DNA from: a virus
Lineage: Duplodnaviria; Heunggongvirae; Uroviricota; Caudoviricetes
DNA length: 35,772 nucleotides
Direction: 5' to 3' (one strand)
IMG/VR virus record: IMGVR_UViG_2565956714_000004
Shown in pieces: positions 3,947 through 33,152 of this stretch (position 1 is its first letter; the number at the start of each line of letters is the position of its first letter). Both the position numbers and the translations under genes were made by a program. The notes under the pieces are model-generated. The model was not told the DNA's origin. It searched no databases and worked only from the letters and a program-made list of their open reading frames with translations.

Positions 3947-4797
3947 GCACCATCCTGAAATGGGCAGGAAATAAAACCGCCATAATGTCCGAACTGAAAA
4001 AGCATCTTCCTGCTGGCCCGCGACTGGTTGAACCTTTCGCGGGTTCCTGTGCAGTGATGATGGAGACGGATTACCCCAGCTATCTTGTTGCGGATATTAA
4101 TCCTGATTTAATCAACCTCTATAAAAAGGTTGCTGCTGATTGTGAGTCGTTTATATCTCGTGCCAGAGCTTTATTTGAGGAAGCAAACAGGGAGGTGGCT
4201 TATTACAACATAAGGCAGGAGTTTAATTACTCCACTGAAATTACTGATTTCATGAAAGCGGTATATTTCCTGTATCTCAATCGTCACGGTTACCGTGGTT
4301 TATGTCGCTATAACAAGAGCGGGCATTTCAACATTCCCTACGGTAATTATAAAAATCCGTATTTCCCTGAAAAAGAAATTCGCGCATTTGCAGAGAAAGC
4401 CCAGCGGGCAACGTTTATCTGCGCCAGCTTTGATGAAACGCTGGCGATGTTGAAGGTGGGGGATGTGGTGTATTGCGATCCGCCTTATGACGGTACGTTT
4501 TCCGGCTATCACACTGATGGTTTCACTGAAGATGATCAGTATCACCTGGCATCTATTCTTGAACATCGGTCATCAGAAGGACATCCGGTCATTGTTTCTA
4601 ACAGTAACACGTCTTTGACCCGGTCCCTTTATCGTAATTTCACTCACCACTACATCAGGGCGAAACGCAGCATCGGCGTTGCAGCGGGGGAGGGAAAATT
4701 TGCAACAGAGATGATTGCCACTAAATCTGCTAATTGGTTTAGTGCCGATTTTAGTAGGGGACGTGACTCTACTGTTATTTTCGGGGTGCAAGTGTGA
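3943..4797 (+). CDS. dam: DNA adenine methyltransferase, Dam family
   Basis: N-terminal [11 protein letters not shown]-binding motif and downstream DPPY catalytic motif; start at ATG 3943 with GGAGG RBS. Confidence 0.85.
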
Positions 4798-5624
4798 AAG
4801 AAATGCACCACGGAATTCATCATTTCCATGGGACGCCTGTCTGGGGAAGTGCTGGCGACGTTCATCGTATTGCGGTGAGCGGAGCTGGCGCTTTCGTCTC
4901 CTATGTACGACCAGATCAGATTGCGGCGTCCATTCAGCACGCTCAGGTCGTCGGCATTGATAACGGCGCATTTTCTGCATGGGTGCGTGGGCTAAAAATT
5001 AACTGGAGTGATTTTTATAAATGGCTCCTGAACTATTACCACCATCCTAAGGTCGCTTTTTTTGTCATTCCTGATGTTGTGGACGGAGGTGAACGTGACA
5101 ATGATGCCCTGATAAACGAAGTTCCGAAAATGTTCTACGGGAAGGCAACTCCCGTCTGGCATCTGCACGAGTCAATCGAGCGGCTTATCGAGCTATGTCG
5201 TGAATGGCCTCGTGTCTGCTTTGGATCGTCTGGTGAATATGCGGCTATCAGAACTGCGCACTGGCATCGTCGTATGCAGGACGCTTTTGAAGCAATTTAT
5301 TGCCGACACAATTTCAAAACAGCTGTTCATGGTTTGCGCATGCTTGACGGTCGTGTGTTGGGAAATTACCCACTGGCGACTGCCGACAGTACAAATCTTG
5401 CCTGCAATGTCCCCAAATTTAATAGCAAATATCCTGAGCTGACGCGGGCTATTCAGGAGGCTGAGTATTCGCGCAATCTGACGGAAAAGGAGCTGAAAGC
5501 TGTCATTCTGAAAAACCGTTGCGCAATTTTAAAAGGTGCAATTGAAGCTGTTCGCCCACCTTCAGTTTCTGATTGGCTGTCGAATGGTTTGCAGCCTTCA
5601 CAGCTCGAACTGGAGATTGCGTAA
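4794..5624 (+). CDS. unknown protein with TGT (queuine tRNA-ribosyltransferase)/DpdA-like motifs, 276 aa
   Basis: GTG 4794 overlaps the dam stop (alternative ATG at 4803). HGTPVWGS near the N-terminus and VGIDNGAFS resemble the TGT substrate motifs (TP-F-PVGT and D-S-G-G-F-Q); no CxCxxC zinc motif. Assignment tentative. Confidence 0.45.
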
Positions 5625-7996
5625 TGAGCTACAGCTATTCCTGGAATGCTGAGAAAAAAGCAATCAATCCTTACGTAGAGACAGAAGAGCAATCTTCAGT
5701 TTCTGCGCTTTCAAACCTGATCGCTCTGTACGCTGCCGATAACGAGCAGGAACAGCTGCGCCGCGAGGCACTGAGTGATCAGGTCTGGGAGCGTTATTTC
5801 TTTAATGAATCCCGTGATCCTGTCCAGCGCGAAATGGAGCAGGATAAGCTCATTAGTCGGGCAAAGCTGGCGCATGAGCAGCAGCGTTTTAATCCAGATA
5901 TGGTCATTCTGGCGGACGTCAATGCCCAGCCTTCCCATATCAGCAAGCCGCTGATGCAACGTATTGAATACTTCAGCAGCCTGGGCAGGCCAAAGGCTTA
6001 TTCCCGCTATTTGCGTGAGACGATTAAGCCATGTCTGGAACGGCTGGAGCATGTACGCGACTGTCAGCTATCCACTTCTTTTCGCTTTATGGCAAGCCAT
6101 GAAGGGCTGGACGGCCTGCTGATCCTGCCTGAAATGAGTCAGGATCAGGTGAAACGCCTGTCCACCCTGGTAGCTGCGCATATGAGCATGTGCCTTGATG
6201 CAGCTTGTGGCGATTTGTATGTCACCGATGACGTTAAGCCAGAAGAAATCCGCAAGACATGGGAAAAGGTGGCAGCGGAAACCCTGCGTCTGGATGTCAT
6301 CCCGCCTGCGTTTGAGCAACTCCGCCGGAAAAGAAACCGCCGTAAACCCGTGCCCTATGAACTCATTCCGGGTTCGCTGGCGCGTATGTTGTGCGCTGAC
6401 TGGTGGTACCGGAAATTATGGAAGATGCGTTGCGAATGGCGGGAAGAGCAGTTGCGTGCTGTCTGCCTGGTCAGCAAAAAAGCATCTCCCTATGTCAGCT
6501 ATGAAGCCGTGATGCATAAACGTGAGCAGCGCCGTAAGTCGCTGGAGTTTTTTCGTTCTCATGAACTGGTGAACGAAGACGGCGACACGCTGGACATGGA
6601 GGATGTGGTAAACGCCAGCAGCAGCAACCCTGCGCATCGCCGCAATGAGATGATGGCCTGTGTTAAAGGCCTGGAGCTTATCGCGGAAATGCGCGGTGAC
6701 TGCGCCGTTTTCTACACCATCACCTGTCCGTCACGTTTCCATTCCACGCTAAATAATGGCAGGCCCAACCCAACTTGGACAAATGCGACGGTAAGACAAA
6801 GCAGTGATTATCTGGTCGGCATGTTTGCTGCATTTCGTAAGGCGATGCACAAAGCCGGATTGCGGTGGTATGGCGTGCGGGTGGCTGAGCCGCATCATGA
6901 CGGTACAGTTCACTGGCACCTGTTGTGTTTTATGCGCAAAAAAGACCGCCGCGCCATCACTGCATTACTGCGTAAGTTTGCCATCCGTGAAGACCGCGAG
7001 GAACTGGGCAATAACACTGGGCCGCGTTTTAAGTCTGAGTTGATTAACCCGCGCAAAGGTACGCCAACAAGCTACATCGCGAAATACATCAGTAAGAACA
7101 TTGACGGGCGTGGTCTGGCTGGCGAGATCAGCAAGGAAACGGGGAAATCCCTGCGTGATAATGCTGAATACGTTAATGCCTGGGCGTCTTTGCATCGTGT
7201 TCCGCAATTCCGCTTCTTTGGCATTCCGGGGCGTCAGGCTTACCGTGAACTGCGATTGCTGGCTGGTCAGGCGGCAAGGCAACAGGGGGACAAAAAAGCA
7301 GGTGCGCCGGTACTGGATAACCCGCGCCTTGATGCCATCCTGGCTGCTGCTGATGCTGGTTGTTTTGCCACCTACATCATGAAGCAGGGCGGCGTACTGG
7401 TTCCCCGCAAATATCACCTCATCAGAACCGCTTATGAAATCAACGAAGAGCCGACCGCCTATGGCGATCACGGCATTCGTATTTATGGCATCTGGTCACC
7501 TATTGCAGAGGGCAAGATCTGCACTCATGCCGTGAAGTGGAAAATGGTTCGTAAGGCCGTTGATGTTCAGGAGGCGGCAGCCGACCAGGGCGCTTGCGCC
7601 CCTTGGACTCGTGGCAATAACTGTCCCCTTGCTGAAAATTTGAACCAGCAGGAGAAAGATAAATCAGCTGATGGGGACACCAGAACGGACATTACCCGCA
7701 TGGATGACAAGGAGTTGCACGATTATCTGCACAGTATGAGCAAAAAAGAGCGCCGGGAACTGGCTGCAAGGTTACGCCTGGTTAAGCCGAAACGGCGTAA
7801 AGACTACAAACAGCGAATTACAGATCATCAGCGACAGCAGCTCGTCTATGAACTGAAGTCCAGAGGATTTGATGGCAGCGAGAAAGAGGTCGATTTACTC
7901 CTTCGCGGTGGCAGTATTCCGTCAGGAGCAGGCCTGCGTATCTTCTATCGGAACCAGCGTTTGCAGGAAGATGATAAGTGGCGGGATCTGTATTAA
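5624..7996 (+). CDS. A: replication initiator (gpA rolling-circle endonuclease)
   Basis: [15 protein letters not shown] (HUH metal-binding motif) and [14 protein letters not shown] (active-site Tyr region) match P2 gpA; start at ATG 5624 (TAATG overlap with upstream stop). Confidence 0.85.
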
Positions 7997-8088
7997 TTAC
8001 GCGGGTTAACAATTCGTGCTCTTAATAATACCAGGTATATCAGGCTGATGATCGTAAAAAAACGTTTTACATCAGTAAGATTATTATA

Positions 8089-8108
8089 TACTGTAAATAT
8101 AAACAGTG
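8089..8108 (+). promoter_or_regulatory. LexA (SOS) box TACTGTAAATATAAACAGTG
   Basis: Perfect CTG-N10-CAG core with AT-rich spacer, 40 bp upstream of the ORF starting at 8148. Confidence 0.6.
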
Positions 8109-8147
8109 GTTATGCATACAGTATTGCTTGGTGTCATAGGAGGAAAG

Positions 8148-8336
8148 ATGCAGGACTATTTTTTGGAGTCTTTGAAGCTCCAGCGCATTGATTTTTTTCT
8201 TAAGCTTGTAGCGGCTAGTGAGTGTAGTGATGAAGAGAAGGGGCTGGCTTTGCAGTGGGTTTCTGAACTAACAGATGAACTCATGGCAAAAATCAGAACC
8301 CACGAATACAACCGCTCAATGGATGTCATCAGCTGA
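8148..8336 (+). CDS. small SOS-regulated protein, possible Tum-like antirepressor component (62 aa)
   Basis: ORF immediately downstream of LexA box with AGGAGG RBS; same position as the 186 tum locus. Confidence 0.45.
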   Translation: MQDYFLESLKLQRIDFFLKLVAASECSDEEKGLALQWVSELTDELMAKIRTHEYNRSMDVIS

Positions 8337-8346
8337 GGTGACTTTT

Positions 8347-8580
8347 ATGCGCATTGAAATAATGATCGATAAAGAGCAGAAGATTAGCCAGTCTACCCTG
8401 GACGCCCTTGAATCCGAGCTTTACCGCAATCTGCGCCCCCTGTATCCCAAAACGGTAATTCGTATCCGTAAAGGTAGCTCTAACGGTGTGGAACTGACTG
8501 GACTGCAACTGGACGAAGAAAGGAAGCAAGTGATGAAAATTATGCAGAAGGTGTGGGAAGACGACAGCTGGCTGCATTAA
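8347..8580 (+). CDS. DinI-family protein
   Basis: MRIEIMIDKEQ...LDALESELYRNL...KIMQKVWEDDSW follows the DinI pattern (MRIEV ... W-x-D-W C-terminus); RBS GAGGTG. Confidence 0.7.
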   Translation: MRIEIMIDKEQKISQSTLDALESELYRNLRPLYPKTVIRIRKGSSNGVELTGLQLDEERKQVMKIMQKVWEDDSWLH

Positions 8581-8714
8581 GAAACGTTGCTGGCGTCTGA
8601 ACTTGTTTCTGGCGTCAGCAAGGTTGAACAACGAGCCCTTGTGAGGCGTTAGCTCTGTAGTGCATGTCTATGCCGCATGAGATCGCATGATCGTTTGAGG
8701 ATCGTTTTTGCTAA

Positions 8715-8740
8715 GGCCCGCCAGAACTGGCGGGCTTTTG
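8715..8740 (+). terminator. rho-independent terminator (GCCCGCCAG-aact-CTGGCGGGC + TTTTG)
   Basis: 9-bp GC-rich perfect stem, 4-nt loop, followed by T-run; downstream of the DinI-like gene. Confidence 0.55.
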
Positions 8741-8784
8741 CGTAGATCATGCAGGTGCATGAAAACCACTACATAAAGCGGGCA

Positions 8785-8803
8785 GGCGTGGCGGGGATAC
8801 GAG
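8785..8803. other. cos: candidate cos site (GGCGTGGCGGGGATACGAG)
   Basis: First 13 nt match the 186 cohesive end and resemble the P2 cohesive end, as I recall them; located between replication and packaging modules. Confidence 0.45.
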
Positions 8804-8958
8804 CGCGCGCAAGCTGGTACCATTATGTTGTTGGATTTCCGAAGTAGACCAGTTATGCCGTTTCTTCGTTAGGCTACTAGTAGCTGTGTGGATAATCTAA
8901 TATACTGAAAGAATGATTGTTCGTGCCAAATGGCGCATGAATTGTTCAGGAGGATAAA

Positions 8959-9654
8959 ATGGAATTATTATTTCAAAATTACCAAGCATCATATTTTACA
9001 AACAATTCTGATGTCACTGCTACACCGCCAGTGCTTTCGATGCTGTTGTCTAATTTGGCTGCGTTATCCCTTTTACCCATGTTTGGGCAGGAGTTGAATG
9101 CTTTAACAGGGGAAAAGCGTCAAATAGTTATTATGACTTCGCCTGACCAAAATTTTCGGGTTGAATTTCCCTTGGGGGCTATTGTCTTTCATGGAGTCGG
9201 CGGTTCCAGTGAAGAGTTCATAAATAAAGTTAAAGATATTATGAAGTCTTTACAGTCAATATTCCCTAATAAAAAAGCGACAAGACTGTCAGTTATTAAT
9301 TCATATTTTTATCATGATAGTCAGGATAATTACTCCAGGCTTTACAGAGAGCTATTCACTCATCGTAATGCAGAACCATTTGAATGGGATAATCGTATTG
9401 TTGAGCGAGTCAATTTGAAAAATTTAAATGAGAGTGTGAATAGTGGGAGTACTGTTCGTCGTTGTTTCATTCAGACTCCATTAGTAAATAATAATCATCC
9501 AACAGAAGTAATAAACTTTGAGGTGGATACAAATACATTGGCAGAAAATAATTCGCTTCGGTTTGATTTTAATTCTGCGAACTCTATTGTTAGTGAGTTG
9601 CAAGAAAATAATGCCAATTTAATTGAGCAATTATCTCGTTATACGAATAAGTGA
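8959..9654 (+). CDS. hypothetical protein, cargo operon gene 1 (231 aa)
   Basis: Long ORF in strongly AT-rich DNA, AGGAGG RBS; no recognisable motifs. Confidence 0.6.
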   Translation: MELLFQNYQASYFTNNSDVTATPPVLSMLLSNLAALSLLPMFGQELNALTGEKRQIVIMTSPDQNFRVEFPLGAIVFHGVGGSSEEFINKVKDIMKSLQSIFPNKKATRLSVINSYFYHDSQDNYSRLYRELFTHRNAEPFEWDNRIVERVNLKNLNESVNSGSTVRRCFIQTPLVNNNHPTEVINFEVDTNTLAENNSLRFDFNSANSIVSELQENNANLIEQLSRYTNK

Positions 9655-9661
9655 GGCTGCC

Positions 9662-10321
9662 ATGGATAAAAATTATGGAAATATAATTTTGTCTGAGGCT
9701 TCGTCAGAAGTTAACACTATTATTAATGATAATAACTTTGACCGTTTTTTGGTTAACTCATCAGTATCTGATAACTCAAAAAAATTATCCTCTTATGTAG
9801 CTAACGATATTAGAATAAATTCAAATAAAACAGCAGTTCAAGCTGGCTCGTTTTTTTTGAAAAAAATTGATGATTCAAATAATTCTTTTGAAAGCATAGT
9901 CATTAAAAAACAAAAAATGACTATGAGTTTACTATTTTCAGAAGATTATGTTGAAGGTGAAATCACTAAGACTCAACTTTATCTTGAAGGCCTTTACAAA
10001 GAAAATTCATTTGTTTTTAGGGAGGTTTTTCAACGGGTTTGGTTAGACCTCTTTCGCAATAAAAATACGTATGAATTACGAAATTTCATATGTGTTGCAT
10101 CTTGCTTAGAATATGAAATTCTTGGTGATAAGGCTGATGCTATCATATTGGCTGCATCGGTTTATGATGATAAATATGTAAATGAAGCAGCTCTGCGTGC
10201 GGCAGAAGGATGGGGCAATCCACAACTTGCACTATATCTAAATGGAATAAGAGATTTTGGAATAAGTTGGTTGGATAATTATAAAAAATCTGTCATAGAC
10301 TATTTGGGACGCATGCAATGA
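9662..10321 (+). CDS. hypothetical protein, cargo operon gene 2 (219 aa)
   Basis: ORF starting 7 nt after gene 1 stop with GAGG RBS; AT-rich; no recognisable motifs. Confidence 0.6.
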   Translation: MDKNYGNIILSEASSEVNTIINDNNFDRFLVNSSVSDNSKKLSSYVANDIRINSNKTAVQAGSFFLKKIDDSNNSFESIVIKKQKMTMSLLFSEDYVEGEITKTQLYLEGLYKENSFVFREVFQRVWLDLFRNKNTYELRNFICVASCLEYEILGDKADAIILAASVYDDKYVNEAALRAAEGWGNPQLALYLNGIRDFGISWLDNYKKSVIDYLGRMQ

Positions 10322-10842
10322 GTTATTTGTTAAGAAAAATATCAATTGCAAAATGGGAACCTAACTTAACATTGCAGCCTGATAATTTTTCAGGCGATGC
10401 TATTACTGGGTGTACACGAACAAAGAATAATACTCTTTCTGTTTGGGCTTCAGATTCAATTGACTTTACCACAGAGGATGTCGAGAAAATCGTTGTTGCA
10501 TTAGCTACAACTATGTCCTCGCCTGATATCATTGATCTTATTTGGTTGGATGAGGACTGGCTTAGAGAAAATGGTGTTCAGATAGCTAACAATCCGGGGC
10601 AAAGTAAGTTTGAAGCTGTAAATCCTATGCATAGGGATTTAGTCGCTATTGACCATCGACAACTTGCAATAGTTGGACAACATATAGTAGAGCAATATAA
10701 TGCAAATCCTGAACTGTATTATAAGCGTTATTCTAGGCCAGAAATTATAGCTTTGGTTCATAAATGGTTGACAAAAAATAATACATTTAAGCTAGAGGAT
10801 TTGCATGAGAAATGGGTAAAGCCTCTTGATAAAATAAAATGA
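10318..10842 (+). CDS. hypothetical protein, cargo operon gene 3 (174 aa)
   Basis: ATGA start/stop overlap with gene 2 (translational coupling); AT-rich; no recognisable motifs. Confidence 0.6.
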   Translation: MSYLLRKISIAKWEPNLTLQPDNFSGDAITGCTRTKNNTLSVWASDSIDFTTEDVEKIVVALATTMSSPDIIDLIWLDEDWLRENGVQIANNPGQSKFEAVNPMHRDLVAIDHRQLAIVGQHIVEQYNANPELYYKRYSRPEIIALVHKWLTKNNTFKLEDLHEKWVKPLDKIK

Positions 10843-10856
10843 CACTTTTGTGTCAT
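10839..10856. terminator. possible bidirectional terminator hairpin (ATGACAC-tttt-GTGTCAT)
   Basis: 7-bp inverted repeat flanked by T/A runs between the convergent cargo operon and portal gene. Confidence 0.3.
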
Positions 10857-10865
10857 TTGTATATT

Positions 10866-11897
10866 TTATTTTAGGTCATAAGGAATGAACTTAATGAGTT
10901 CACATCCAACAAACTCATTAAGTTCTTCTATTCTTTTCTGAAGCGGGAGCAATTCATTACGTACGAATACCTTACTGGCCTTCTCCACATCCCCAAACCC
11001 CCCGACATTATTAGGCATTATCCCCATCATTTGTGGCGGCACACGATGCGCCGCCATCATGTCGTCCCGGCTCACGTTCTTGATATTCAGGAACTCATCC
11101 TTCGCCGCCACTTCTGACAACGGGATAATCTGAAGCCCGTCCTTTTTGCCGTTAGGCGAGTACATAAACAGGTTGCGGAAGTTACCCGGTCCTTTGGCGC
11201 TTTTCATCGCGTTGCGGAGGTTGTTCACGTCCTCCTGGTTCTGCGCGGCATCGGTCATGTACATGATGAAGCCCGCATGACTGCCGTTAATGTAATACTT
11301 GCGACGGAACAGCGTGGCGGACTCATTGAGCAGGGCTGACGGAATAGCAGAAAGATAGCCGGGCAGGCCATAGATCTCCTGATTTATGTCCGGTTCCATC
11401 AGATGGAAAATGCTGCCTTTCGTGAACTGATACGGCTGCGTGGTCATGCCGTATTGCACAAACCAGTAGGTATCCAGGTCTAAACCGCGTCGGGTGTATT
11501 TTGCCAGCGCAGGTTCAAGGGCGATAACTTCACCGAAGCGGTTCGTGCGTTTCTCCAGATAGGCGTTACCAAATACCAGATAGTCCTGTACAAAACGCGA
11601 AAAAGCCTGTTGGCTGAGCAGCGGATGAGGGATATAGGTACTGGTCAGAATGTTGCACTTTACTGCAATCGGGGAACTGTGATGCACGGCAGCGCGGAAG
11701 GTGCGCGCCAGTCCGTCAAAGCTGACGGGCGGCTCATACCAACGGTCCATCTGTACGCATTCCACATAGTCCAGTAATTCTCGGCGGTCCAGAACTGGAA
11801 CGGGATCGCCGAAGCTGAATGCTTCGGCTGTAGTCTGGTTTTTATGCTGGATCTGATTCGTCGCCGCAGTGCGGTTTTTCTTACTCTTTCCCATCAA
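10866..11897 (-). CDS. Q: portal protein (gpQ)
   Basis: 343 aa, size and position as P2 gpQ, immediately downstream of and overlapping the terminase large subunit gene. Confidence 0.85.
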   Translation of the reverse strand: MMGKSKKNRTAATNQIQHKNQTTAEAFSFGDPVPVLDRRELLDYVECVQMDRWYEPPVSFDGLARTFRAAVHHSSPIAVKCNILTSTYIPHPLLSQQAFSRFVQDYLVFGNAYLEKRTNRFGEVIALEPALAKYTRRGLDLDTYWFVQYGMTTQPYQFTKGSIFHLMEPDINQEIYGLPGYLSAIPSALLNESATLFRRKYYINGSHAGFIMYMTDAAQNQEDVNNLRNAMKSAKGPGNFRNLFMYSPNGKKDGLQIIPLSEVAAKDEFLNIKNVSRDDMMAAHRVPPQMMGIMPNNVGGFGDVEKASKVFVRNELLPLQKRIEELNEFVGCELIKFIPYDLK

Positions 11898-22106: not shown

Positions 22107-23632
22107 GCACAAAATTTTATACCCTGCTGACGGATATTGGCGCGGCGAAACTTGCCAGCGCCGCCGCGCTCGGTGTGCCGCTAAAAATTACCCATATGGC
22201 GGTCGGCGATGGCGGCGGAACATTGCCAACGCCGAACGCAAAGCAGACAGCATTAGTAAATGAGAAACGCCGGGCTGCGCTGAATATGCTCTATATCGAC
22301 CCGCAGAACAGCAGCCAGATTATTGCTGAACAGGTGATCCCTGAAAACGAGGGCGGTTGGTGGATACGTGAAGTGGGCCTGTTTGATGAGTCCGGGGCAT
22401 TGATTGCCGTGGGCAACTGCCCGGAAAGCTATAAACCGCAACTGGCTGAAGGCAGCGGGCGTACCCAGACCGTGCGCATGGTGCTGATTACCAGCGGCAC
22501 GGACAATATCACCCTGAGAATCGACCCTGCCGTAGTGCTGGCAACCCGCAAGTATGTGGATGACAAGGCACTGGAGCTGAAGGTGTACGCGGATGATCAG
22601 ATGGCAAAACATCTTGCCGCACCGGACCCGCATTCACAGTATGCACCCAAAGAAAGTCCGACGTTTACCGGGACACCCAAAGCGCCAACGCCAGCCGCAG
22701 GGAATAACACCACGCAGATTGCGACCACCGCGTTTGTTCAGGCGGCTCTGACGGCTCTTATTAATGGTGCGCCAGCCACGCTGGACACGCTGAAAGAAAT
22801 AGCCGCAGCCATTAACAATGATCCGAAATTCAGTACCACCATTAACAATGCGCTGGCACTGAAAGCGCCGCTGTCGAGTCCGGCACTCACCGGAACGCCA
22901 ACCGCACCTACTGCGGCACAGTCGGTCAACAATACACAGATTGCCACTACGGCTTTTGTGAAATCGGCGATTGCGGCAATGGTGGGTTCTGCACCTGCTG
23001 CACTGGATACACTGAACGAACTGGCGGCGGCGCTGGGAAATGACCCGAACTTTGCCACGACAATGGTGAATGCTCTGTCAGGTAAACAACCGCTGGACAA
23101 TACGCTGACTAATTTGAGTGGAAAGGATGTAGCTGGTCTTCTCACATACCTTGGTTTGGGAGAAGGCTCTGCATTACCTGTTGGTGTGCCTGTTCCATGG
23201 CCTTCAGCCACACCGCCAACAGGCTGGCTGAAATGCAACGGTGCGGCTTTTTCTGCTGAAGAATACCCGGAACTGGCAAAGGCTTATCCGACAAATAAAT
23301 TGCCTGATTTACGTGGTGAGTTTATTCGTGGCTGGGATGACGGGCGCGGTATTGATGCAGGACGTGTTTTATTGAGCATTCAGACAGGGATGCTGGAAAA
23401 ACACCGCCATATTGTTGTTGCCAATGATGGTTACGACACAAAAGATGAATGGGAACTGGCTACGATTTTCAAAAAGACATACACACAAGGACGGGGACTT
23501 GATGCCACAAATACAGGAGGGAGTCTGATCCCATCACCGACACTTCATTCACGAGGGAGTATCGGTAATACTGGCGGGAGTGAAACCCGTCCACGAAATA
23601 TTGCATTTAACTATATCGTGAGGGCTGCATAA
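22103..23632 (+). CDS. H: tail fiber protein H (constant N-terminus plus currently expressed variable C-terminus)
   Basis: 509 aa; N-terminus MSTKFYTLLTDIGAAKLA typical of P2 H; contains a hix/gix-like crossover site at 23139..23164. Confidence 0.85.
   Translation: MSTKFYTLLTDIGAAKLASAAALGVPLKITHMAVGDGGGTLPTPNAKQTALVNEKRRAALNMLYIDPQNSSQIIAEQVIPENEGGWWIREVGLFDESGALIAVGNCPESYKPQLAEGSGRTQTVRMVLITSGTDNITLRIDPAVVLATRKYVDDKALELKVYADDQMAKHLAAPDPHSQYAPKESPTFTGTPKAPTPAAGNNTTQIATTAFVQAALTALINGAPATLDTLKEIAAAINNDPKFSTTINNALALKAPLSSPALTGTPTAPTAAQSVNNTQIATTAFVKSAIAAMVGSAPAALDTLNELAAALGNDPNFATTMVNALSGKQPLDNTLTNLSGKDVAGLLTYLGLGEGSALPVGVPVPWPSATPPTGWLKCNGAAFSAEEYPELAKAYPTNKLPDLRGEFIRGWDDGRGIDAGRVLLSIQTGMLEKHRHIVVANDGYDTKDEWELATIFKKTYTQGRGLDATNTGGSLIPSPTLHSRGSIGNTGGSETRPRNIAFNYIVRAA
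23139..23164. repeat. invertase crossover site (hix/gix-like), left: TTCTCACATACC-TT-GGTTTGGGAGAA
   Basis: 26-bp imperfect palindrome with 2-bp core inside H; inverted copy at 24981..25006 shares GGTTTGGGAGAA. Confidence 0.7.
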
Positions 23633-24234
23633 TGGATAACGCCGTATTAAATAGCGAGCTTATTGCCACGAAGGCGGGGAATATTACCGTCTATAACTAT
23701 GATGGTAAAACTCGGGAATATATTTCTACTTCAAATGAATATCTTGCCATTGGTGTCGGTATCCCTGCATATTCCTGTCTGGATGAACCTGGTATACATA
23801 AGGCGGGTTATGCTATCTGCCGTTCGATGGATTTAAACTCATGGGAATATGTGCCAGACCATCGCGGTGAAATCGTCTATAACACCGAAACGGGAGACGC
23901 CAAAGAAATCACAGCTCCGGGTGATTATCCTGAAAATACAACCACTATCGCCCCGTTAACGCCATTCGATAAATGGGATGGTAAGAAATGGGTGACCGAT
24001 ACTGAGGCACAGCATAGCGCCGCAGTAGACGCGGCAGAAGTACAGCGTCAGTCACTGATTAATACTGCAATGGCTTCCATTAGTCTGATTCAACTTAAAT
24101 TGCAGGCCGGGCGGAAGCTGATGCAGGCAGAGACCACCCGACTTAACACTGTGCTGGATTACATTGACGCGGTGACGGCAACAGATACCAGCACAGCGCC
24201 GGATGTCATCTGGCCTGAACTGCCGGAGGCGTAG
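23632..24234 (+). CDS. G: tail fiber assembly protein (gpG/Tfa), currently expressed copy
   Basis: 200 aa; C-terminal LDYIDAV...DTS..PDV.WPELP typical of Tfa chaperones. Confidence 0.8.
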   Translation: MDNAVLNSELIATKAGNITVYNYDGKTREYISTSNEYLAIGVGIPAYSCLDEPGIHKAGYAICRSMDLNSWEYVPDHRGEIVYNTETGDAKEITAPGDYPENTTTIAPLTPFDKWDGKKWVTDTEAQHSAAVDAAEVQRQSLINTAMASISLIQLKLQAGRKLMQAETTRLNTVLDYIDAVTATDTSTAPDVIWPELPEA

Positions 24235-24643
24235 GCCATTCAATATCTGGCACACTGGAGGTATCAACCAGCTCCAGTGCGTCCAGGTAATCCAGCCACA
24301 AATTATATTGCGCCAGTTCCTCGTCTTTCAGACGACCAATAGCGGCTTTACCGGGCCATTGTTTACTGTTCATGTATTCGTTGGCCTGATTAAGCAATAA
24401 TTGCCTTTCTGATTCTGCCTGTTGAATAAGTTCTTCATGTGATGGTGGAGGTATTAGTGCCCATGTGGGTAATCCATTTTCTCCTGCAACACGAATTTTG
24501 CCATCTGGGGGCGTATTTATTGCAAATTCATTATAAACATCATCACTGACAGCCAGAGCATCATCTGGCCATGAATTTGCATTAATGTAATCATCCTTAA
24601 GTGCAGGATTCACAAAAATGTTTAAAGATGGACTATAAAACAT
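24206..24643 (-). CDS. alternative tail fiber assembly protein (Tfa') in invertible segment
   Basis: 145 aa with the same conserved C-terminal motif (WLDYLDAL...DTSSVPDIEWP); convergent with G. Confidence 0.75.
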   Translation of the reverse strand: MFYSPSLNIFVNPALKDDYINANSWPDDALAVSDDVYNEFAINTPPDGKIRVAGENGLPTWALIPPPSHEELIQQAESERQLLLNQANEYMNSKQWPGKAAIGRLKDEELAQYNLWLDYLDALELVDTSSVPDIEWPTPPAVQAR

Positions 24644-24644
24644 A

Positions 24645-24992
24645 TTACACCCCTATAGCGATATAACGACCTAATACAGCGTTTGCAGCAGTCGCTATGC
24701 TTGAAAAACCGCGGAACTGATTTGATGTAATTGCAGAAGCCGACAGGATTCCTGCACCTGAAGGTGTATGCCCCACATGACTAACTATCATTCCATAACA
24801 TGCTGACGGAAAGGCAAAAGGAAAATCATTAAGATATCCGGCATCTTCACCACCAGACCCACCAAATCTCGCCTGCCCCCACTGAATAATCAGTGTTCTC
24901 CGGGAACCTGAAATAATTAACGGAATCGTTACATACCCATTCAGACCAATGACACCCGATGCAGTGCCAGCCAGAGATAATTCTCCCAAACC
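24645..24992 (-). CDS. alternative tail fiber variable C-terminal segment (silent until inversion)
   Basis: Minus-strand frame encodes VGLGELS at the crossover site, paralleling LGLGEGS in H at the other site; no independent start expected. Confidence 0.65.
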   Translation of the reverse strand, partial: GLGELSLAGTASGVIGLNGYVTIPLIISGSRRTLIIQWGQARFGGSGGEDAGYLNDFPFAFPSACYGMIVSHVGHTPSGAGILSASAITSNQFRGFSSIATAANAVLGRYIAIGV

Positions 24993-25006
24993 AACGTTTA
25001 AGAAAA
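24981..25006. repeat. invertase crossover site, right: TTCTCCCAAACC-AA-CGTTTAAGAAAA
   Basis: Inverted copy of the site in H; 2-bp cores are complementary, as required for inversion. Confidence 0.7.
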
Positions 25007-25061
25007 TGCAGAGGTAACAGCTAACTGGCATCATCCCCGGTTTTTAGTCAGGGGGATAATC

Positions 25062-25628
25062 ATGCTTATTGGCTATGTACGCGTGTCAACAAATGACCAG
25101 AACACCGATTTGCAACGTAATGCACTGAACTGCGCGGGATGTGAGCGGATTTTTGAGGATAAAATCAGTGGCACTAAGTCCGACAGACCGGGGCTGAAAA
25201 AACTGCTCAGGACACTATCGGCAGGAGACACGCTGGTTGTCTGGAAGCTAGACAGGTTGGGGCGCAGTATGCGGCATCTTGTTACGCTGATAGAAGAGTT
25301 GCGTCAGCGTGGCGTGAATTTCCGAAGCCTGACTGACAGTATTGATACCAGCACCCCAATGGGCCGTTTCTTTTTTCATGTCATGGGAGCCCTGGCTGAA
25401 ATGGAACGCGAACTGATAGTTGAACGTACCAGGGCAGGGCTGGCTGCAGCTCGTGCCAAAGGCAGAGTAGGTGGACGCCGTCCTAAGTTGACCACTGAAC
25501 AGTGGGCACAGATTGGACGTTTACTCGAGGCCGGAGAATCAAGACAGCGTATTGCACTGATTTTTGATGTAGGCGTTTCTACCATTTATAGAAAATTTCC
25601 GGCAAATAAGAGCAATGAATCCCCCTGA
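25062..25628 (+). CDS. serine DNA invertase (Gin/Hin/Pin/Cin family)
   Basis: MLIGYVRVSTNDQNTDLQ (catalytic Ser motif) and C-terminal HTH GVSTIYRKF; 188 aa. Confidence 0.9.
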   Translation: MLIGYVRVSTNDQNTDLQRNALNCAGCERIFEDKISGTKSDRPGLKKLLRTLSAGDTLVVWKLDRLGRSMRHLVTLIEELRQRGVNFRSLTDSIDTSTPMGRFFFHVMGALAEMERELIVERTRAGLAAARAKGRVGGRRPKLTTEQWAQIGRLLEAGESRQRIALIFDVGVSTIYRKFPANKSNESP

Positions 25629-25676
25629 ATCAGCATAATTTTGATTATCCCTGCAAGCAGACAAATACCGTCATTT

Positions 25677-32917: not shown

Positions 32918-32939
32918 CGCTGCCGCCATTTTGTCGCCA
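32918..32939. repeat. attR: attR core (direct repeat cgctgccgccaTtttgtcgcca)
   Basis: 21/22 identity with 19..40; begins immediately after the ogr stop. Confidence 0.6.
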
Positions 32940-33152
32940 TCGTTAAAAAACAGTGCTTCTAACATCATGATTTTAAACAGCTTAAATTCCAGGCAACAAA
33001 AAACCCATCAACCTTGAACCGAAATGGCGGGGTTGATGGGCTCCACAAAATGGGGACATCAAAGAAAAGCAGTGGCACTAATTAAGACTGATGCCCTGCG
33101 GAAAAGTTCTGCGGTTGTGCAAAAAAATTTCATTTTCAGGGCAACTTCAGTT

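Follow-up and report, generated by a model that had tools for sequence, protein, structure and literature searches.

The question that this locus raises is how a prophage with a 186-type immunity repressor senses DNA damage in its host, and which of two small genes standing behind one LexA operator does the inducing. The genes lie in a module at positions 8066-8580 of the window (the whole stretch of viral DNA that was analysed, 35,772 nt long), which consists of a predicted LexA-operated promoter, a 62-aa gene (ORF1) and a 77-aa DinI-family gene (ORF2). The evidence assembled below indicates that this module is very probably the operon through which a P2/186-family prophage of the Fels-2/DuoHS type responds to SOS induction, i.e., the tumA/tumB form of the phage 186 tum gene, with TumA as the inducer. 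Its position between the replication endonuclease gene A (5573-7996) and the predicted cos end (8785-8803) corresponds to the tum slot of phage 186, as the earlier note on this DNA had proposed. The features concerned are the following.

8066-8071, + strand: putative -35 hexamer TTTACA, 17 nt before LexA box 1
8089-8094, + strand: putative -10 hexamer TACTGT, inside LexA box 1, proposed by analogy with the annotated -10 of 186 p95
8089-8108: LexA box 1, TACTGTAAATATAAACAGTG, matching the consensus at 17 of 20 positions, with CTG and CAG intact
8104-8123: LexA box 2, CAGTGGTTATGCATACAGTA, matching the consensus at 14 of 20 positions, with GTG replacing CTG and a 5-bp overlap with box 1
8138-8143, + strand: Shine-Dalgarno sequence AGGAGG of ORF1, read in the sequence as AGGAGG-N4-ATG
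8148-8336, + strand: ORF1, tumA-like gene, ATG at 8148 and TGA at 8334-8336, 62 aa, predicted CI antirepressor
8325-8342, + strand: small hairpin over the tumA stop and the ORF2 Shine-Dalgarno sequence, terminator-like in the scan
8335-8341, + strand: Shine-Dalgarno sequence GAGGTGA of ORF2, read as GAGGTGA-N5-ATG
8347-8580, + strand: ORF2, tumB or DinI-like gene, ATG at 8347 and TAA at 8578-8580, 77 aa
1447-2022, - strand: cI, 186-type immunity repressor (Pfam PF07022 and PF16452), predicted target of TumA

The order given by the earlier note, a small ORF followed by a DinI-family ORF, is correct (62 aa, then 77 aa with a Pfam DinI match), and so is its view of the two as genuine genes, each of which has a strong ribosome binding site of its own and remains intact across phages and E. 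coli genomes. The two ORFs are read in different frames and are separated by a 10-nt gap, and the hairpin at 8325-8342 may couple the translation of tumA and tumB. The same note had also pointed to a joint span of 144 codons, close to the size of 186 Tum; the span holds (8148-8580 comprises 433 nt, and 186 Tum has 146 aa), but the two proteins sum to only 139 aa and their frames differ.

The bare CTG-N10-CAG pattern is uninformative as evidence for a LexA site, with 18 matches against about 10 expected, and the 20-bp consensus was used instead. With at most three mismatches allowed, this consensus occurs at just two sites in the 35.8-kb window (8089-8108 and 1083-1102) against 0.00 expected, and the LexA box is considered real for this reason. 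The intact CTG-N10-CAG box reported previously is therefore upheld at 8089-8108, although it ends 39 nt rather than 40 nt before the ATG of ORF1, and the second, overlapping box had been missed. Both boxes are kept in Fels-2, vB_EcoM-813R9, SopEPhi, ST437-OXA245phi4.1 and E. coli HS, and each of the five phages compared has TTTACA exactly 17 nt 5' of box 1. In SopEPhi and ST437phi4.1, the 35 bp of the operator share 83-91% identity with the window, against just 58-68% for the flanking DNA.

The putative promoter has the geometry TTTACA-N17-TACTGT, to be compared with TTCACA-N18-TACTGT of the annotated p95 promoter of 186, whose -10 likewise falls within a LexA box; an alternative -10, TATACT at 8087-8092, would leave a 15-nt spacer. 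A consensus promoter scan of 7950-8950 returned no promoter, a result that is not counted against the proposed one because the thresholds of the scan exclude the weak -10 TACTGT, which 186 p95 also uses. A single LexA box is present in 186, PSP3 and the ESSI-2-type phages. Box 2 was considered as the counterpart of the single 186 box on the basis of their pairing by MAFFT and of their similar distance, about 40 nt, from the start codon, and this assignment was rejected; given the shared promoter geometry TTYACA-N17/18-TACTGT, box 1 corresponds to the 186 box and box 2 is an addition.

An operator of the same build is found in front of colicin and cloacin genes, where two 20-bp boxes also overlap by 5 bp and the second also has a GTG half-site. 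The colicin-type double SOS operator differs from that of the window in its promoter hexamers and in controlling a bacteriocin rather than a prophage antirepressor. A plasmid search with the Fels-2 version of the operator returned 1206 records, and many of the matches listed are ColE1-type plasmids of about 9.3 kb. In one plasmid, NZ_CP031807, the sequence TACTGTATATAAAACCAGTGGTTATATGTACAGTA stands just 5' of a colicin-like tRNase bacteriocin gene; counted by eye, 29 of its 35 positions are shared by the window operator and 32 by that of Fels-2. The paired overlapping boxes of colicin operators are reported to be bound cooperatively by two LexA dimers, leading to very tight repression (PMC2994835). 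We infer that the double operator serves the very tight shut-off of a lethal function.

The earlier note had suggested, as a check, aligning the two ORFs with 186 Tum and E. coli DinI; ORF2 matches both, and ORF1 matches Tum by profiles only. ORF2 covers positions 1-63 of the 63 of the Pfam DinI profile PF06183 with 81.3 bits (cut-off 24.2; E 6.6e-23) and retrieves the E. coli DinI structure 1GHH at E 2.7e-6. This alignment with DinI is full-length and includes the region of the acidic C-terminal helix, although the two proteins are only about 30% identical and ORF2 is phage-encoded. ORF2 is additionally 41% identical to residues 71-145 of 186 Tum (E 3e-24), 78% identical to TumB of PSP3 and identical at 77 of 77 residues to STM2726.1 of Fels-2.

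For ORF1, BLASTP gave no alignment with 186 Tum, a Pfam search gave no family, and a PDB sequence search gave no relative among solved structures, even at E 10. The link appears in PHROG profiles of families of ~60-aa proteins, three of which are reached both by ORF1 (phrog_698 at E 3.6e-38, phrog_8554 at 2.4e-8 and phrog_1993 at 0.0022) and by the N-terminal 70 residues of 186 Tum (6.7e-6, 3.3e-12 and 2e-23, respectively). The alignment also brings a common Cys and an ALxW/L motif into register. At the profile level, then, ORF1 is distantly homologous to the N-terminal half of Tum. Its closer relatives are STM2728 of Fels-2 and ECHS_RS04495 of E. coli HS, each identical at 61 of 62 residues, and TumA of PSP3 is 22% identical. 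In ESSI-2-type phages, a LexA box is accompanied by a TumA homologue (41-49% identical) and no DinI-like gene is found within 600 bp on either side of it, so that the module appears to be built around the small protein, with the DinI-like gene as an optional addition.

The guess that the two ORFs could be a split tum is thus substantiated, ORF2 corresponding to the C-terminal half of Tum and ORF1 to the N-terminal half, and the arrangement is already known, a prior description that the earlier note missed. In the PSP3 record, the module position is occupied by tumA ("similar to 5' end 186 tum; UV induction of prophage") and tumB ("similar to dinI and 3' end of 186 tum"). The original paper on lexA and tum in Fels-2 is reportedly that of Bunny et al. 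from 2002. Tum of 186 has been described as resembling a fusion of an antirepressor and DinI, and both Fels-2 and PSP3 as carrying a split tum whose upstream gene is the antirepressor (Lemire et al., 2011); for PSP3, this assignment is a personal communication cited second-hand in the same paper (Lemire et al., 2011). In 186, Tum is made after derepression of p95 and inactivates CI reversibly by sequestration (Lemire et al., 2011, among other sources).

The relatives differ from the module in informative ways. Tum of 186 (146 aa, transcribed from p95) shares with it a 186-type CI as target and a C-terminal half resembling ORF2, but it is one fused polypeptide with nested internal starts, follows a single LexA box and is itself followed by orf97. 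PSP3 likewise has two genes after gene A, although there tumA and tumB share one frame split by a stop codon, TumA has diverged as given above and the LexA box is single. Fels-2 has a nearly identical TumA and an identical DinI-like protein, and its module likewise follows gene A and is headed by a double LexA operator; it differs in having a further gene right after the DinI-like gene and in its CI, which is about 71% identical in the N-terminal domain and about 25% in the C-terminal domain. More distant are the dinI-gfoA/gftA operons of Gifsy-1/2/3, which are also LexA-controlled, also combine a small antirepressor with a DinI homologue and also leave the repressor uncleaved, but in these lambdoid Salmonella prophages dinI comes first and the repressor and antirepressor belong to other families.

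Genetic evidence comes from DuoHS, the prophage of E. coli HS. Its proteins are nearly those of the window (CI 179 of 189 residues identical, Apl-like 73/73, CII 168/169, TumA 61/62, DinI-like 77/77), and it has the same double operator and the same region upstream of int; unlike the window, it carries another gene directly after the DinI-like gene. The DuoHS tum gene is ECHS_RS04495 and its DinI-like neighbour ECHS_RS04500. In the Phollow paper, Δtum and lexA(Ind-) derivatives of E. coli HS each failed to lyse or to produce virions after mitomycin C, so that both tum and a cleavable LexA are needed for induction, and the SOS reporter response of the Δtum strain was still normal (PMC12055606). 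The published Δtum primers (PMC12055606, supplement) fuse ...ATAGGAGGAAAGATG straight to TGAGGTGACTTTTATGCGCATTG, and the two primer halves match the window exactly, one ending at 8150 and the other starting at 8334. The deletion therefore takes out exactly the ORF1 orthologue and spares the DinI-like gene together with its ribosome binding site, which identifies the ORF1 orthologue, and not the DinI-like gene, as the inducer in DuoHS. Since the CI repressors of the two prophages are nearly identical, this result carries over to the window.

The repressor itself argues in the same direction. CI of the window has the helix-turn-helix and C-terminal domains of 186 CI, is 32% identical to it and retrieves the 186 CI structure 2FJR at E 3.3e-31; a Pfam search found no peptidase-family match in it, and cleavage is therefore not expected. 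Of the 186-type CI/Apl/CII immunity that the earlier note had described, CI and CII are both confirmed by Pfam as being of the 186 type, whereas the Apl assignment is less secure, the Apl-like ORF showing 22% identity to Apl of Fels-2 (E 5e-7) and no Pfam match. The central proposal of that note, namely that the SOS response induces the prophage by way of a LexA-derepressed Tum-like antirepressor and not by CI autocleavage, gains support from the DuoHS Δtum and lexA(Ind-) strains and from the lack of a peptidase-family match in CI.

An alternative is that the module is SOS-induced for some other role, such as RecA modulation or superinfection functions, and that the prophage is induced by another route. 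The observation that virtually the same TumA is paired with CI repressors only 38-54% identical to that of the window could be read in this sense, given that TumA need not then fit every CI. However, DuoHS, whose CI and TumA are close to identical with those of the window, needs tum for induction; self-cleavage of a CI lacking a peptidase match is unlikely; and no second LexA-boxed candidate for an antirepressor was seen in the window, its one remaining consensus site being that at int. We regard this alternative as improbable.

Still less probable is that the DinI-like ORF2 is the actual inducer or antirepressor, with the 62-aa ORF as an accessory or a leader peptide, even though it is ORF2 that clearly resembles 186 Tum in a pairwise alignment and database records name the whole of 186 Tum after DinI. 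Induction of DuoHS is lost upon deletion of the ORF1 orthologue only, ESSI-2-type phages combine a LexA box and TumA without a DinI-like gene, and it is the upstream gene of PSP3 that was reported as the antirepressor (Lemire et al., 2011). Finally, that ORF1 and ORF2 are the remains of a single decayed tum gene, as their 144-codon span might suggest beside the 146 codons of 186 Tum, is scarcely credible for two ORFs with a strong ribosome binding site each that both persist undamaged in 66 phage records as well as 1144 of 5426 complete E. coli genomes, given also that stand-alone small-protein families of the TumA kind exist (phrog_698, 8554, 1993 and 37919), that 186 tum itself has an annotated internal GTG start yielding the DinI-like part alone, and that the ORF1 orthologue is functional in DuoHS.

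With the module read as an SOS-induction operon in which TumA is the inducer, the following course of events can be proposed. In the lysogen, host LexA would occupy the two overlapping boxes, which, judging from the sequence, cover the -10 region and the transcription start. Upon DNA damage, LexA would cleave itself, the module promoter would fire and the 62-aa TumA-like protein would be made. TumA would then bind the 186-type CI and block its binding to DNA, turning on the lytic promoter, and CI would not be cleaved in the process; this step is modelled on 186 biochemistry and DuoHS genetics, CI binding being known for 186 Tum. The co-transcribed 77-aa DinI-like protein is probably an accessory rather than the inducer and is predicted to modulate RecA filaments and hence the strength or duration of the SOS signal. 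Deletion of the dinI homologues of the Gifsy prophages had no clear effect (Lemire et al., 2011).

The pairing of TumA with CI can be followed across related phages. Those with a 98-100% identical TumA have CI repressors that are just 38-54% identical overall to that of the window, and the divergence is unevenly spread over the protein, with 69-78% identity in the N-terminal DNA-binding domain and 25-42% in the C-terminal oligomerisation domain. Among 14 phages, which are related and hence not independent, TumA identity rises and falls with that of the CI N-terminal domain (Spearman 0.88) but not with that of the C-terminal domain (0.31). These comparisons hint that TumA may recognise the N-terminal domain of CI and might act across immunity types. 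In the Klebsiella phage Kp4860-7, in ST11-OXA245phi3.1 and in PSP3, CI has about 286 aa and carries two tandem N-terminal helix-turn-helix domains, and these tandem-domain repressors pair with the same TumA as single-domain repressors do.

Downstream of ORF2, the window continues into sequences that resemble the right end of the 186 genome.

8587-8621, + strand: strong hairpin without a U run in the RNA fold, 7 nt after the ORF2 stop
8716-8739, + strand: G+C-rich hairpin followed by UUUU in the RNA fold, 136 nt after the ORF2 stop and 46 nt before the predicted cos end
8785-8803: predicted cos cohesive end, GGCGTGGCGGGGATACGAG, the 186 right terminus aligning up to 8784

The strong terminator that the earlier note had placed behind ORF2 is thus only partly recovered, in that a hairpin with UUUU does exist but lies 136 nt downstream, near cos, and the nearer hairpin at 8587-8621 lacks a U run. 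The counterpart of orf97 of 186 and of the corresponding Fels-2 gene is absent after ORF2, and the sequence just past the nearer hairpin matches 186 DNA 3' of orf97. Window positions 8719-8784 align with the final 66 nt of the 186 genome, and the bases that come next, GGCGTGGCGGGGA, coincide with the opening 13 bases of the annotated 186 cos. This alignment of the 3' flank with the 186 right end and cos makes the module the last transcription unit before cos. The hairpin at 8716-8739 is 96% conserved in Fels-2 and is likely to be the transcript end, a cos-proximal element or both; since the hairpin with which it aligns near the 186 right end has no U run, it may serve packaging besides or instead of termination. 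An Rfam search of 7900-9100 found no RNA family, and neither the leader nor the 3' region showed signs of a riboswitch or small RNA.

The second consensus LexA site of the window, TACTGTATATATAACCAGTG at 1083-1102, lies upstream of int (1-1053, - strand). It fills exactly the 17-nt spacer of a promoter-like site, TTGACA-N17-AAAAAT (1078-1106, - strand), which is located about 25 nt 5' of the GGAGG and ATG of int. 813R9, KP12, 4LV2017 and E. coli HS, phages and prophage whose upstream neighbours differ at this point, all retain the TTGA and both half-sites (CTG and CAG) unchanged, and the 106-bp segment upstream of int is found in 961 of 5426 complete E. coli genomes. From its arrangement, the integrase gene looks directly LexA-repressed. 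In 186 and Fels-2, unlike in the window, int directly follows cI. Here, the two are separated by a 63-aa ORF (1243-1431, - strand) with a signal-peptide-like N terminus, several cysteines and a GGGAGG 5' of it, which belongs to phrog_6000 (unknown function) and is identical at 61 of 63 residues in E. coli HS; this insertion may explain why int has a promoter of its own. A literature search for a LexA-controlled int promoter in P2-like phages found no description, which does not in itself prove novelty. The broader proposal that one TumA would serve many immunity types via the CI N-terminal domain, and that LexA cleavage would also license int excision directly, is offered as a tentative one, more doubtful than not in its combined form.

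Beyond cos, the stretch up to the portal gene (8959-10842, + strand) is taken up by three consecutive, partly overlapping ORFs of 231, 232 and 174 aa, which have 29-39% G+C against about 52% in their flanks and fall into PHROG families of unknown function (19817, 21208 and 10743). Pfam and PADLOC gave no useful match for these three ORFs. They fill a variable slot, in which Fels-2, 813R9 and E. coli HS carry other genes, and may represent an uncharacterised accessory or defence cassette. In a comparison that covered 45 kb of E. coli HS and ended inside the tape-measure gene, the window differs from E. coli HS at 4719-5698, at 8579-10950 (save for a 151-bp match by cos) and at 22567-25644. The published primers for deletion of the entire prophage from E. 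coli HS have an exact counterpart in the window at 7-44 and one with two mismatches at 32918-32957, which suggests that the prophage spans the window from its start to about 32.96 kb, with host DNA beyond.

The module is widespread. A 701-bp segment covering it is found in 1144 of 5426 complete E. coli genomes, with at least 80% coverage in 710 of them, and it is also present in 56-66 phage records from Klebsiella, Escherichia, Salmonella, Yersinia and Cronobacter. Among the E. coli and phage matches listed, the 62-aa gene is annotated as "hypothetical protein". As a system, the module is already known and has been experimentally tested in a relative, so that no new biology is claimed for it; what is added beyond the literature found is modest, namely that the operator is double and colicin-like, that a promoter-like site with a LexA box precedes int and that one TumA is paired with many CI repressors. 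If int is LexA-repressed, LexA cleavage would directly permit excision at the same time as CI repression is lifted, and if TumA binds the conserved N-terminal domain of CI, it could cross-induce co-resident P2-family prophages whose CI repressors are different overall. For annotation, the value of the finding is that an unnamed 62-aa gene present in about one fifth of complete E. coli genomes very probably encodes the inducer of these prophages. The module explains how they sense DNA damage and helps to predict which prophages are induced by fluoroquinolones or mitomycin C.
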